NCBI RefSeq assembly: GCF_029227855.1
Contig: NZ_CP074356.1
DNA from: Escherichia coli
Lineage (GTDB): Bacteria > Pseudomonadota > Gammaproteobacteria > Enterobacterales > Enterobacteriaceae
Direction: 5' to 3' (one strand)
Length of the DNA stretch: 64,000 nucleotides
Numbering within the stretch: the first letter of the stretch is position 1; each line of letters starts with the position of its first letter. A program made the position numbers. Shown one piece after another: positions 28,301 to 34,300 of this stretch.

Positions 28301-31300
28301 ATCATGTATAAGCAATAAAAAACAGCTTCAGGTAATGAGGAATATCTCAATTTTTAAACATAAAATGCGAATTATTTAGTACAAAAAGTGTACTTCTGAT
28401 GATCTTTCCCTGTCCTTGGCACCATCATTTTTTGACGCTTCAAAAATACTACTACAAGTGAGTTTAGAAAACTCTTTTCCAGATAATTCTCCAGGTTGTA
28501 ATCCTCCGCCGCCAAAAATCCTACTCCCAGGATTTCCATACCTATTTAGAGCATATGAATAGCAATTATTTACGGCAAGATAATACGCATCTGAATTTAG
28601 TTCTCGATTGAATACTGGAGCAGGTTTATCAATTAAGCCCAGCGGATCAATAGAATAGGTTGGATGTATGGAAGCATATACATACTGATTCCACCCGCCT
28701 TCCAGCCCAATCGGATCCTGAGTGATATACCGCCCCTGCAGCGGGTCATAATAGCGGTGGCGGTTGTAATACAGGCCGGACTCCTCATCATACTGCTGCC
28801 CCGGCAGACGGATAAGCTGCTGCAGGTGCTGCGGGTTCTCTTCAGTCAGCAGGTTGTCCCATTCATCATATTCTGCGCACCATTCTGTTGCCCCGTCAGG
28901 GCTGATAAGCGTCAGCGGCAGGCCGCGATAGTCGCAGTGGTAGAGGTGGATTATTCGCAGTGATCTATATGCCAACGTCATCTTATTTTTCATCTACTCC
29001 AACGAGTAGACAAGTTTTTTATTAAACCATTTATACCTTTTACGATTAAATTTTCTTATGTAATAGAGGTGAATAATCTTCCCAAAAATCCATACAAGCT
29101 TTACTTGCATAAAAGAATCCAGCGTCTGATTCATAAGACATAAACTGTGCAATAATAGATAGTTGTATATCTGAAAAATTAAAAACAAAATTCAAAAAAT
29201 CATCGTGATCCCGATACTCAGGACATAAATATTGTTGAATAAAATCGGATTCAAAAACCCAAAAATCATTCTTATTAAACAACGAGGCATAAATATACAG
29301 AGGGATGTAATAGCAGAATACTTTCTCAGGGAGGAATGTAATTCCTAACTCTAAAGCATAAGAGTCATCCTTTATTTTAAAATTGTTGGCTATTTCATTC
29401 CATTGTTTCTTTTGGAAAAAATTATATACAATATCCAGTTCCTCCAGCCCTGTAATATCATTTGAAATATGAGGTAATGGCTGGCATGGGAAATGAATCA
29501 TAAGTTCATCATAGACTGCACTCTCGTTAGAGAAAATTATTTTTTTCATTTTATTAAGCCACTGCAATCAGCTGCTGTTTTATATGCTTTATTCTCTTCT
29601 TCCATATGGGCCTTATCTCCACCACCAAAGCACTGATTATTAATCTGCTTTCTGACCGAAGCGCACGCCAAATTTATCTCGTACCGTCTCAATATTTCTT
29701 TTCTCAGCATCTGAGGAGCGCAAGCTCTAGACTGGTTACATAATCTGTTTTTTTCATTTTGTAAGTCACTCAGGTTCTGGGGACTACAGTTACCACCAGG
29801 ATTTACACCTGACTTATGTTCATCTGTTAATTTGTCGGCTTCTGGATTAACTTTACGGCCATATTGATCTCTGCGTTGTTGCCCACTTTGGATAACACCA
29901 CCTGATGAAAACAAACCGCAACTCATCAGTGCTACAACACTAAGAATTAACGGATTTAACCCTTGTGGGTCTATCTCTGAGATCGGATTTAACGGATACT
30001 GATAAAAATTCCATCCCCCCTTCAGTCCAATCGGATCCTGAGTGATATACCGCCCCTTCAGCGGGTCATAATAGCGGTGGCGGTTGTAATACAGGCCGGA
30101 CTCCTCATCATACTGCTGACCCGGCAGGCGGATGAGCTGCTGCAGCTGATGCGGGTTCTCTTCATTCAGCTGGTTACCCCATTCATCGTATTCTGCGTAC
30201 CACGCTGTTGTCCCTTCCGTGCTGACAAGCGCCAGCGGCAGGCCGCGATGGTCGCAGTGGTACAGGTGGATTTTTCGCGCCGGCGTGTACACCGGGTCCA
30301 TCTGGTTTTGCATCTGCTCCACCGTCAGGCCGCACGATGCCAGCCAGCGGCGGCTTTCCTCGCTCACCCGGTCAGTAAGGATTTCACTTTCCAGCCGGTC
30401 GAGCATCTGCACCAGCACCGGCGGGAACACCACTCTGCCACCGTCTTCGCCGCCGGACTGCTGAAGGGCATCCGCCAGGCTGCGGCGCTGCGTTTTCGCC
30501 AGCTCACCGGTGGCGGTTTCAACTCTGATGAGTGGCGTGAAGCTCCCCGGCTGATAAACCGTCTGGATGCGGGTTCTGTCGTTCTGTATTGTGGTCAGCC
30601 GGTCGCCGTCCCAGCCGTACCAGGTCACTTCCGGTTTCCGTGACAGCGACATCCAGCCCGTCAGGTCCCGTTCACGCCGCCATACCCGTTTTGCCACCCT
30701 GCGGCCCAGCGGGTCGTAAAGATAGCGACTTTCGACCAGCGGCTCTGCATATTGTGTCCGCGTGTAGTGCACCAGCCGGTGCCGGCTGTCGTAATGATAC
30801 CGGTGAGTCCGCTCATCATCCGTGCGGATAACCCCTTCCGGGATGAGGTCGGTTTTCTCTGTCAGCCTGCCGTGACGGTCATACCGGTAAAGATAGTGCG
30901 CGTCACGGGCGATACGGTTATCCGGCCACATGCTGAGGGTGCTGTCCGGGTGCAGCTCCGGGTCGGGCAGGCGGTTGCCTGCCGGGTCCGTGGCATACGG
31001 GATGCGGATATCCAGGTTCGCTGCCGTGGTGTGGACGCCGGTCAGCCTGCCGGTGTCGCTGTAGCTGTAACTCCGGGTCTGGCGCGGGCTGCTGATGCGG
31101 ATGAGTTCGCCGTTGTCGTTCCAGGTGTAATCGCGGTCATACTGCAGGCTGTTCAGGTGCTGGCTCTGTAACTGCCCGGCAGGGGTGTAAGCGGTGGTGA
31201 GTTCATAACGGCCGAAGCTGCGCAGCGTTTCCCGGTGCAGGCGGTCGCGGGTGAAATCCACCAGCGGTGTGTCGCCGAGTTTCATGCCTGACAGCCAGCC

Positions 31301-34300
31301 GCTGCCGTAGGTCAGCCATTCCACGGCGGGCAGGCTGTCCGGTATACAGCGGTTCGCCAGTCCCTGCGCGTTGTAAGCATGTCTGGTTTCATGCTGCCAG
31401 AGCAGTGCTTCCGTCTGCGGGTGATGCACCGTCTGGCGCTCACCGGTCAGGCGGCCTTTCTCATCATACCCGTAATGCACCGTCACCCGGTGGCCTTCGC
31501 TGAGATAGCTGATTTGTGTCAGCCAGCCGCGTTCGTCGTACCGCCACTGTTCTGCGGTTTCACCATTCACCGTTCGCTGTGTGATGCGGTCTGCTTCGTC
31601 ATAGTGCCAGTGGGTGACCAGCCCCTCATCCTCGCTGCGGATAAGTTTGCCGGTCAGGTCGTGGTGATAACGCTGTGTGCGGCCGTCAAAGCCGGTTTCC
31701 TGTATCAGCCGGTCGAGTACATCGTAACGGAAGGTGGTGTGGCTGCCGTTTTCACTGGTCAGGCGGATGACCCGTCCGGCAGCATCGTATTCCATACTGC
31801 GCGTCAGACCACCCTGCGTGGTACGGATGGCCTTTCCCCACGTATCGTACTGTGTCCCGTTTCTGCTGCCGTCCGGGGCAATGACGGCGGTCAGGTCACC
31901 GGCGGCGTTGTATTCATACCGCGTTTCATGGCCCTGCATGTCTTTCACCGCAATTAACTGTCCACGGCTGTCGTATGCGCGGTACTGACTCAGGCCTTCC
32001 TCGCGGTGCACCGTCGTCACCTGACCAAAACGGTCATGGTCATAGCGGGTTACATAACCGGAACAGTCGGTAAAGCTCAGCAACTGACCGTAACGGCTCC
32101 ACGTCATGGTTTTCCGGCTGCCGGTGGCATCTTCCGTTGCGCAGGGGAAGTCACTGTGTGGATTATCATAACGGTAGCGGGTGATATCGCCGTCAGGGGC
32201 GGTTTCCTGAATCAGACGGCCGGATTCATCATATTCCCGGCGCAATTCCAGCCCGTCAGGCCCGGTGGCTGACGTTAACTGGTTGTGGTGGTTATAGTAA
32301 AATGCCGATGCCCTGCCATCCGGTGTGGTGATGCGCGTGATGAGGCCCGTCACCACATCCGGGCTGTACTCAGTCGTCCGGCCTGCGGCATCCGTCTGTG
32401 CCTTAAGCCCGCCCACCGCGTCAAACTGACTCTGCGTGACGCTGCCGTCCGCGTGTTCCTTTTTCACCATCCGCTTCAGCCCGCCTTCGCCCTGCGTGTG
32501 CAGCACTTCACGGCGGTCCAGACTGTCGGTGATGGTGATGCGGTCTTTCTCATACTGATACGTGTAGCTTAAGCCTGCCGGGTTTAGCTGTTCTGTCACC
32601 CGCCCGTCGCTGTCGTAACGGTAACGGATATCCGGCCGGCCCGTGTGACGGTGCGCCACCATCCGGCCCCGGTATTTATCATCGTAAGTAAAGCTGCGCA
32701 CCTGTGTATTGCTGCGGTCATACACCGCCGCCAGTTCGCCGCGTGGCGTCCAGCCATAGCGCACCAGCGGCGCGGCAGGTAAATTCTCCGGGTATTCCGG
32801 GTCGTGCGTCAGCCACACGGCAGACAGACGGATGCCGTTGTCCCGGCCATATTCGGTGTAACCCGGCAGGGTATCAGGAAAAACGGACGGTTCCGTCCCG
32901 CCGGAAGAGGCCTGCTGCCGGGCTTCTTCTGCCCGCTGCGCCTGCGTGGTCAGTACCAGCCGGAAGTGACGCCCGGCACCATCCGTCACGCCGGTGATTT
33001 CGCCGCTGAATTCACCGGCGGCTTCGCGGTGGAACGTCTGTGTGCGCCCGAAGCGGTCCACCAGCCCGGTCAGTACCCGGTACGGCGGCAGCGGCGCGGG
33101 CAGCACCTCATCCGCTTCCGGCACCCGCTCACACCAGCCGAGCAGCCACCACGGCCCCTGCGGACTGTTTGTCGCCAGATAACGATGCGGACTTAAGCGG
33201 AGTTCTTCCGGCAGCGCCTGCCAGAGTGCGGCCAGCCGGTGACCTTCATCCAGTTTCAGGACACCGCCGCGCACCAGCCAGAGTGACTCGCTGCGGCTGT
33301 AACCGTCCTCACCGGGAAACAGGTGCTCAAAATACAGGCTTCTGCCGCCGTTATCACTGAGTATCAGTGTGTTATCGCGCAGCTGTAAGCGGATATCCGC
33401 AGGCATTTTCCAGCCGGGGCCGAGGCTCCCCACCGGCGCGGGCGTTTTTGTCCGGTAACTGCTGTAGGTGCGGGAGAGGATGAACGGCAGCGGGCCGGGC
33501 AGGGCAAGGTCGGTTTCGCCGGGAAGGACCTTCGCGCCGAGCAGCGGATTGACCGGATGGCCGGACGTCACCCCGCCGGGGCACACCGAACAGGCCACGC
33601 CGGTGGGGGCACCGATGCGCACCCCGGCTGAACCCTGGACAATGCTACCGCCATACTGCGTCATGTCGCCCTGACGCGCCGCCGGTTTTCCACTCATCTG
33701 CTCATCCTTGTTTTATCGGGTTATTTGTCTGCTGACAGGCGAAACCCTACAGATTTATAAGAAAGCCTTAAGTGAGATATCTGTCAGATAAGAACAATTA
33801 GGAAAATATTTATATATATTTCATGAATATATATTTCGGTTGGGTAATGCGATGTATAAATACTTACCTGAACGTCTTCCCGACAAAAAAACCGCCAGCG
33901 TTTCCGCTGGCGGTTTTCTTTTCTTTGAACGTAATATTTAGCAATCAGTAAAAATCACCAGTTGCCTTTTCTGCCTGATCCATCCACACCGGTTTCTCGC
34001 TGGTTTTCGACCAGACGCGGTGCAGGTAGCTGTAAAAGCGGGCGCGGTCTTTCCAGAAAAGCATGAAAGGCAGCGCCAGAACGCCCGCTGCAACCGCATA
34101 AGTACGGCGTAAAAAGATAAGCCATGCAGGATATTCTCTGTAGAGTTCCATACTTTTCTCCCCCTTTTGTATCTACCCGGTGAATGGCACCGGAAAAATG
34201 AATTTGTTTATCTGATGAAAATAGTACCGCCTTTTGTGTAATTTTACTACTCATCCGACCACTTATTTTTGCTTATTGATGGTTTATTTACATTCATCGT

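Follow-up and report, generated by a model that had tools for sequence, protein, structure and literature searches.

We analysed a 64,000-nucleotide stretch of Escherichia coli DNA (assembly GCF_029227855.1, contig NZ_CP074356.1; the whole stretch is called the window below), in which a large Rhs gene is followed by a small, AT-rich open reading frame (ORF). The two genes very likely constitute a toxin/immunity pair of the Ntox16 and DUF6714 families, and the locus as a whole is probably a chromosomal Rhs element of the rhsC site that carries a horizontally exchanged cassette, made up of an Ntox16 toxin and its cognate DUF6714 immunity protein. A preliminary description of this DNA had proposed an Rhs polymorphic toxin with a swapped tail and an immunity-like gene downstream, a proposal that gains support from the finding that DUF6714 co-occurs with the toxin domain in distant lineages. 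It had also held the tail to be unassignable to any toxin family, and this part was overturned, since the tail matches Ntox16 and carries the motif published for that family.

The Rhs gene and its C-terminal tip

The full Rhs ORF lies on the minus strand (29546-33697), starts with ATG and encodes 1383 amino acids plus a stop codon. Its residues 1-1247 (29957-33697, minus strand) form the core, which has a GC content of 0.617, contains the repeats of the YD-repeat shell and ends in DPQGL. Over exactly these residues the NCBIfam RHS_core equivalog, which has a cut-off of 2000 bits, gave the protein a score of 2630 bits. TIGR03696 (Rhs_assc_core, also from NCBIfam) matched residues 1170-1247, and Pfam reported DUF6531, 11 RHS_repeat matches (E<=0.001) and RHS. 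The core terminus at residue 1247 carries an autoproteolysis motif of the PxxxxDPxGL type and is followed by a variable tip of 136 amino acids. It is at DPQGL that the GC content drops, from the value of the core to 0.407 in the tail (29549-29956), and it falls to 0.304 in the downstream ORF (29046-29549), the window mean being 0.519. The ORF list, translation and GC content thereby agree with the outline given in the preliminary description, namely a 1383-amino-acid Rhs ORF with a GC-rich core ending at DPQGL, an AT-rich tail from that point on (136 amino acids, given there as about 137) and an AT-rich ORF of 167 amino acids whose ATG sits on the Rhs stop codon. Because of the RHS_core score and the existence of full-length homologues of the 167-amino-acid protein, we regard both ORFs as real genes and not chance ORFs; RefSeq annotates the two genes alike in a 100%-identical cassette.

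Pfam assigned the tail to Ntox16 (PF15523), with tail residues 54-133 (29558-29797, minus strand) covering positions 2-84 of the 85-position model at E=1.2e-12 and 48.3 bits. Zhang, de Souza, Anantharaman, Iyer and Aravind described Ntox16 in 2012 as an alpha-helical domain with a conserved arginine and a [DNE]xxH motif, carried by RHS, PVC-metallopeptidase and Sec-exported proteins, and filed it among the predicted metal-independent ribonucleases (RNases), with no immunity family listed for it (PMC3482391). The published signature is present in the tail as R102 and D114-K-A-H117, and the AlphaFold2 (AF2) model of the tail is all-helical. Nothing separates the E. coli tail from the family, as the helical make-up, the position at an Rhs C-terminus and the R plus [DNE]xxH residues are common to both, the family having extracellular contractile injection system (eCIS)/PVC-metallopeptidase and Sec-exported carriers beside Rhs. 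To the 2012 account our analysis adds a folded unit that extends ~25 residues further N-terminally than the Pfam model, six invariant cysteines beside the published signature, and DUF6714 as the usual partner of Rhs-linked members.

When the tail was combined with six close relatives into a family profile, the search returned 334 cluster representatives at E<=0.001. Ntox16 was matched by 63 of the 67 longer members scanned, in which RHS, RHS_repeat, DUF6531 and eCIS_core co-occurred with it. The domain lies almost always at the very C-terminal end, followed by a median of 3.5 residues, and a signal-peptide-like N-terminus was detected by a crude heuristic in ~13 of 65 full-length members (~20%). 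Carriers of these kinds, RHS, eCIS_core or a signal peptide, are as expected for a polymorphic-toxin tip.

In the AF2 model of the tail (overall predicted local distance difference test score, pLDDT, 90.5), a hydrophobic, transmembrane-like stretch directly follows DPQGL (29891-29956, minus strand) and was modelled with a pLDDT of 57-60; likewise, 31 of 52 Rhs-linked members have a Gly/Ala-rich hydrophobic stretch between DPxGL and the domain. The folded toxin unit comprises tail residues 28-136 (29549-29875, minus strand; ~109 amino acids) and was predicted with a pLDDT of ~97-99. Its helices span residues 38-49, in an N-terminal extension, and then 59-73, 85-109 and 115-135, which make up a cysteine-rich core. 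The extension, residues 28-53 (29798-29875), lies upstream of the Pfam model and consists of a D-x-x-G-x-x-[VI]-x-P-x-A motif and a helix (pLDDT ~97), a combination that recurs in many Rhs-linked members, P0071, P0078, P0095 and P0069 among them. The folded domain is polar and basic, neither amphipathic nor hydrophobic, and the toxin has an isoelectric point (pI) of 8.9, the family median being 8.4. A fold search, which was uninformative, found no characterised fold resembling the helical bundle. The profile and structure-prediction searches proposed in the preliminary description thus led, on the profile side, to Ntox16 for the tail and DUF6714 for the downstream ORF, and on the structural side to predicted folds with no informative match.

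The DUF6714 partner

The candidate immunity gene (29046-29549, minus strand) overlaps the Rhs TGA with its own ATG, at 29549, in the sequence ATGA, and encodes a protein of 167 amino acids with a pI of 4.5 and no signal peptide. Its match to Pfam DUF6714 (PF20461) spans residues 67-158 at E=3.9e-5 and 24.1 bits, covering positions 65-159 only of a 161-position model, and is thus weak but consistent. Several homologues with 57-65% identity carry a precomputed PF20461 match, and when the family of the 167-amino-acid protein was compared by hhalign with the Pfam-annotated DUF6714 partner of a distant Rhs-Ntox16 protein, the two aligned over their full length with 87% probability (E=3.9e-6). Full-length homologues with 53-82% identity occur in Citrobacter, Enterobacter, Salmonella and Lelliottia, and a profile search of a word-indexed protein database, aimed at more distant homologues, yielded none outside Enterobacteriaceae. 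The AF2 model of the E. coli protein is all-alpha (pLDDT 78), and only generic HEAT/VHS-like repeats resemble it.

The pairing was surveyed, on the basis of 12 exact look-ups of which one matched no record, at ten distant loci of the family, eight of them Rhs-linked and two of Sec type. A Pfam-annotated DUF6714 gene lies immediately downstream of Rhs-Ntox16 at six of the eight (P0068, P0057, P0067, P0119, P0046 and P0077), often overlapping the toxin stop codon, and so DUF6714 appears to be the main cognate, and the predominant, immunity family of Rhs-linked Ntox16. No statement of an Ntox16-DUF6714 link was found in the searchable literature. The two Sec-type toxins have partners other than DUF6714, and all partners examined, whatever their carrier, are acidic (pI 4.5-5.8) and soluble, with no signal peptide, lipobox or membrane segment.

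Some further features of these pairs were observed along the way. Within Enterobacteriaceae the toxin changes more slowly than its immunity protein, identity to the E. coli proteins being 87% for the toxin vs 58% for the partner in Lelliottia wanjuensis (P0004/P0032) and 77% vs 68% in Enterobacter quasimori (P0009/P0018), with toxin and partner matched in both species through equally long contigs. A metagenomic contig (L008:1-5973) carries tandem Rhs genes, one with an AHH-nuclease tip followed by a 358-amino-acid gene and one with an Ntox16 tip followed by DUF6714, and is an array of alternative Rhs toxins. On other metagenome contigs a Sec-type Ntox16 protein of 330 amino acids (P0065) is encoded, together with an unrelated 216-amino-acid partner, between gyrB and gyrA (L006:3001-4634 and L007:529-2162). 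The start and stop codons of this gene pair overlap the neighbouring genes, and the protein was found on five contigs; its placement could be a chance insertion into a conserved gene pair, or it could be a hint at the target.

Conserved residues and the site of action

Conservation was read, in tail numbering, from an alignment of 141 sequences. Conservation reaches 99-100% at six cysteines (C57, C73, C79, C98, C109 and C131), R102 occurs in every sequence (141/141) and H117 in all except one (140/141). The glycines G112 and G113 hardly vary, position 114 holds D or N, and conservation is strong at R77, N95 and N106. All of these residues are present in the E. coli tail, among them R102, the six cysteines and the GGDxxH117 motif. 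R102 and H117, located at the junction of helices H3 and H4, are likely to form the catalytic centre, in line with the RNase guess of 2012. Two extra cysteines, one at position 85 and one beyond C131, occur together in 38 sequences, singly in only 3 and 2, and not at all in 98 (Fisher p=2e-28, by a test that ignores shared ancestry). A disulfide would be expected to leave just such a paired gain of two cysteines and no more, and the six invariant cysteines therefore most likely form three disulfides.

HEPN RNases are helical bundles with an Rx4-6H motif. Ntox16 resembles these metal-independent enzymes in being a small all-alpha bundle with one invariant Arg and one invariant His that opens the last helix, and it is this layout on which the RNase guess was based. 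An identity with HEPN was rejected, as R102 lies 15 residues before H117, outside the Rx4-6H spacing, and position 111 is Arg in only 25 of the 141 sequences. A phospholipase A2-like identity was rejected too, the residue after H117 being R, Q, K or M and not the Asp of a His-Asp pair, with no fold match, and so was a saposin-like one, for its motif spacing and for lack of a matching fold.

The closest solved relatives of the core are type VI secretion system (T6SS) effectors, namely Tse5 (8cp6), RhsA (7q97), Tse15 and Tre23. P. protegens RhsA, P. aeruginosa Tse5, A. baumannii Tse15 (8uy4), Photorhabdus Tre23 (7pq5) and Salmonella bongori Rhs (8qjc) have, like the window protein, a shell of YD repeats and an Rhs-associated core that carries the C-terminal aspartyl autoproteolysis motif (E-values over the core from 6e-125 to 2e-35), and they follow the same logic, in which an encapsulated toxic tip is succeeded by an immunity gene. 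The alignments to them stop by residue 1261, and so the tip of the window protein is unrelated to theirs. Tse5-CT forms pores and is countered by an immunity protein of the membrane, and Tre23 acts as an ADP-ribosyltransferase, whereas the tip studied here is a predicted cysteine-rich helical bundle with a soluble immunity protein.

By analogy with the structures of RhsA, Tse5 and Tre23, the YD-repeat shell would enclose the tail, the core would cleave itself after DPQGL, and the particle would be fired by a T6SS via its PAAR-like N-terminus. The released tail would then poison the recipient unless bound by DUF6714, and its hydrophobic leader may perhaps aid crossing of, or docking to, the inner membrane. 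We consider a cytoplasmic target fairly likely, because every partner examined is devoid of an export signal. Nucleic acid would be the most likely target, and our leading guess would be RNA cleavage through R102, D114 and H117, because the toxin is basic, the immunity protein is acidic and the sole published prediction is that of a metal-independent RNase; that the toxin is an RNase specifically we hold to be doubtful. A bolder proposal, and an unlikely one, is that Ntox16 would constitute a mechanistically new class of interbacterial toxin, a helical bundle of ~100 amino acids held by three disulfides, with a chemistry or target unlike those of characterised toxin folds. Such a toxin would be inert in the reducing cytoplasm of its producer, would be folded by the periplasmic oxidation machinery of the recipient and would enter the cytoplasm with the aid of its leader, DUF6714 serving as the antidote.

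The probable disulfides introduce a tension, as they suit an oxidising compartment and clash with a cytoplasmic immunity protein. One alternative is that the toxin acts outside the cytoplasm, as a disulfide-locked helical protein that folds in the recipient periplasm and harms the membrane or envelope, by membrane perturbation or a lipase-like activity, with its leader as the anchor that holds it in the inner membrane. The near-complete conservation of the six cysteines would fit such a mode of action, as would the disulfide-pair signature left by the co-occurrence of Cys 85 and the cysteine beyond C131, the Sec-type signal peptides of ~20% of full-length members and the hydrophobic stretch that precedes the domain in most of the Rhs-linked members inspected. 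However, immunity proteins to T6SS toxins that act in the periplasm or on membranes are normally exported or membrane-bound, and every downstream partner seen here is soluble and acidic, devoid of a signal peptide, lipobox or transmembrane segment. Moreover, the folded domain is polar and basic and neither amphipathic nor hydrophobic, and no Asp follows H117 to complete a phospholipase A2 His-Asp pair. We therefore find an extracytoplasmic action improbable.

The cysteines may alternatively, possibly together with H117 and D114, bind a metal such as zinc, which would make the toxin a metal-dependent cytoplasmic enzyme or nucleic-acid binder. Two tetrahedral sites could be filled by the eight ligands that six Cys, one His and one Asp supply, the cytoplasm is where the Rhs-linked form is synthesised and where its immunity protein resides, and the PDB sequence search gave its best matches, albeit weak, to uS14, a zinc-binding ribosomal protein (E ~0.5). 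Those matches, however, are at chance level, the domain has no CxxC/CxxH knuckles, its cysteines lie 6-22 residues apart on different helices, and many family members are exported through Sec. The paired gain of exactly two cysteines, too, fits a disulfide and not a metal site, and we give metal binding little credence.

The rhsC locus and delivery of the toxin

We return to the reading of the locus as an rhsC-site Rhs element with an exchanged Ntox16/DUF6714 cassette. The neighbouring genes run in the order kdpFABCDE, ybfA, the Rhs gene, the candidate immunity gene (in RefSeq a 'hypothetical protein'), an rhs pseudogene fragment, a degraded ISAs1 (ybfD) transposase, ybgA and phrB, and judged by this order the locus is the E. 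coli rhsC site (kdp-ybfA-rhs-ybgA). The rhsC element of E. coli K-12, which we take to lie between kdp and ybgA in the order ybfA-rhsC-ybfB-orphan-ybfC-ybfD H-repeat, shares with it the site, the flanking genes, the downstream orphan fragment and the ISAs1/H-repeat remnant, but its C-terminal cassette is unlike the Ntox16/DUF6714 cassette of the window. The window does not come from the reference strain, as an alignment of the two Rhs cores showed differences at 31 of 1384 positions, a 4-residue indel among them.

The cassette (29000-30000) was found at >=99% identity in 243 of 5426 complete E. coli genomes (~4.5%), always on the chromosome, and was absent from the plasmid collection searched. 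It is 100% identical to some E. coli chromosomes, and no decay of it was seen across the 243 genomes. At its 3' end the main rhs core carries a direct repeat of 271 nucleotides (30008-30278), whose other copy, with 90% identity, lies in the orphan fragment (28688-28958). Recombination that swaps C-terminal cassettes would be likely to use this repeat as its substrate.

The orphan rhs 3' fragment itself (28376-28993, minus strand) encodes, as read from its translation, a core end with a DPLGL of its own and an AT-rich tail of 85 amino acids, different from the tail of the main gene. RefSeq annotates it as a pseudogene without an N-terminus, and Pfam found RHS only, the 85-amino-acid tail giving no Pfam family match. 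This tail is seemingly truncated and has no obvious immunity gene, and we interpret the fragment as a displaced or reserve cassette of the same Rhs element. Its NNCYSYA motif is reminiscent, as an impression only, of the catalytic cysteine of a peptidase or amidase. Next after the fragment lies the degraded ISAs1/H-repeat transposase, at ~27501-28268.

On the other side of the Rhs gene, the stretch that separates ybfA from the rhs start contains, at 33888-33917, a perfect GC-rich hairpin of 13 bp with A and T runs at its flanks (AAAACCGCCAGCG...CGCTGGCGGTTTT). It looks like a bidirectional terminator, in which case rhs would probably need a promoter of its own within the 190 nucleotides upstream. 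No consensus promoter was found in these 190 nucleotides, and scanning the region for promoters and terminators gave no signal above background.

Several points weigh against the reading that we prefer. The six probably disulfide-bonded cysteines fit poorly with the reducing cytoplasm as a site of action. At two of the eight distant Rhs-Ntox16 loci the next gene is a different or unrecognisable partner that gave no DUF6714 match, and so the pairing is not universal. No activity shown for any Ntox16 protein was found in the searchable literature. As regards delivery, the literal tetrapeptide PAAR stands at Rhs residues 5-8, but Pfam reported no PAAR domain on the Rhs protein, its N-terminus giving DUF6531 only, and the 64-kb window, read through the homologous annotated region, contains no vgrG, hcp or T6SS structural gene. 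On account of these two negative results, delivery by a T6SS in the source strain is unproven.

E. coli K-12 has no T6SS, and the cassette may similarly be stored, or not deployed, in the source strain because its Rhs protein cannot be delivered, as with the rhs elements of K-12. The missing PAAR domain and T6SS genes would agree with this, as would the orphan fragment and the degraded transposase that flank the element. Set against it, both ORFs are intact and keep all family-invariant residues, the cassette shows no decay at >=99% identity in 243 genomes, and proven T6SS Rhs effectors are the proteins that the core resembles most. T6SS clusters, moreover, usually lie elsewhere on the E. coli chromosome than in such a region. 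The chance that the cassette is not deployed thus seems small to us.

We see hardly any prospect that, as the preliminary description had it, the tail belongs in no known toxin family and the pair is wholly undescribed: neither the tail nor the immunity protein was matched in NCBIfam or PADLOC, PDB searches with single sequences and profiles gave no real match and no solved structure for either, a PHROGs scan gave a lone weak match to a PHROG of unknown function (E=0.0057) and RefSeq names the immunity gene only as hypothetical, but the Ntox16 match and its published motif already refute this, the partner matches DUF6714, and UniProt labels relatives 'Novel toxin 16 domain-containing protein'. 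A narrower claim of novelty stands. Both families are already named, but no experimental work on Ntox16 or DUF6714 was found in the searchable literature, where, apart from one unrelated mention, Ntox16 is named functionally only in the 2012 catalogue (PMC3482391), nor was a catalogued immunity family. Ntox16 is thus a catalogued domain and not a well-characterised toxin with a known cognate immunity protein, which the preliminary description had named as a finding that would refute it.

Two further observations concern other parts of the window. At 42227-42991, between pgm and kdpE, the speF-potE operon (~4.2 kb in strain 7/2) is missing and a 764-bp repeat-rich stretch takes its place; E. 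coli 042 is arranged in the same way, as are 248 of 5426 genomes, and we therefore regard this as a known lineage polymorphism. At 48090-48815, between chiQ and fur, lies an IS200C-like copy that is 99.7% identical to the copy of strain 7/2, which sits elsewhere, between nagE and glnS.

Rhs tips are where new toxic chemistries turn up, and Ntox16 has been catalogued since 2012 with no immunity family assigned to it until DUF6714 is proposed here. New in this analysis are this recurring partner, a confident fold prediction that has no characterised match, the candidate catalytic residues R102, D114 and H117, and the probable disulfides. Since a copy resides in E. coli itself, in ~4.5% of complete genomes, the proposal is easily tested. 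Should the toxin be an ordinary RNase, the gain would be an annotation for two Pfam families; should the disulfide puzzle be real, it would have a bearing on the folding of T6SS cargo and its passage across the inner membrane.

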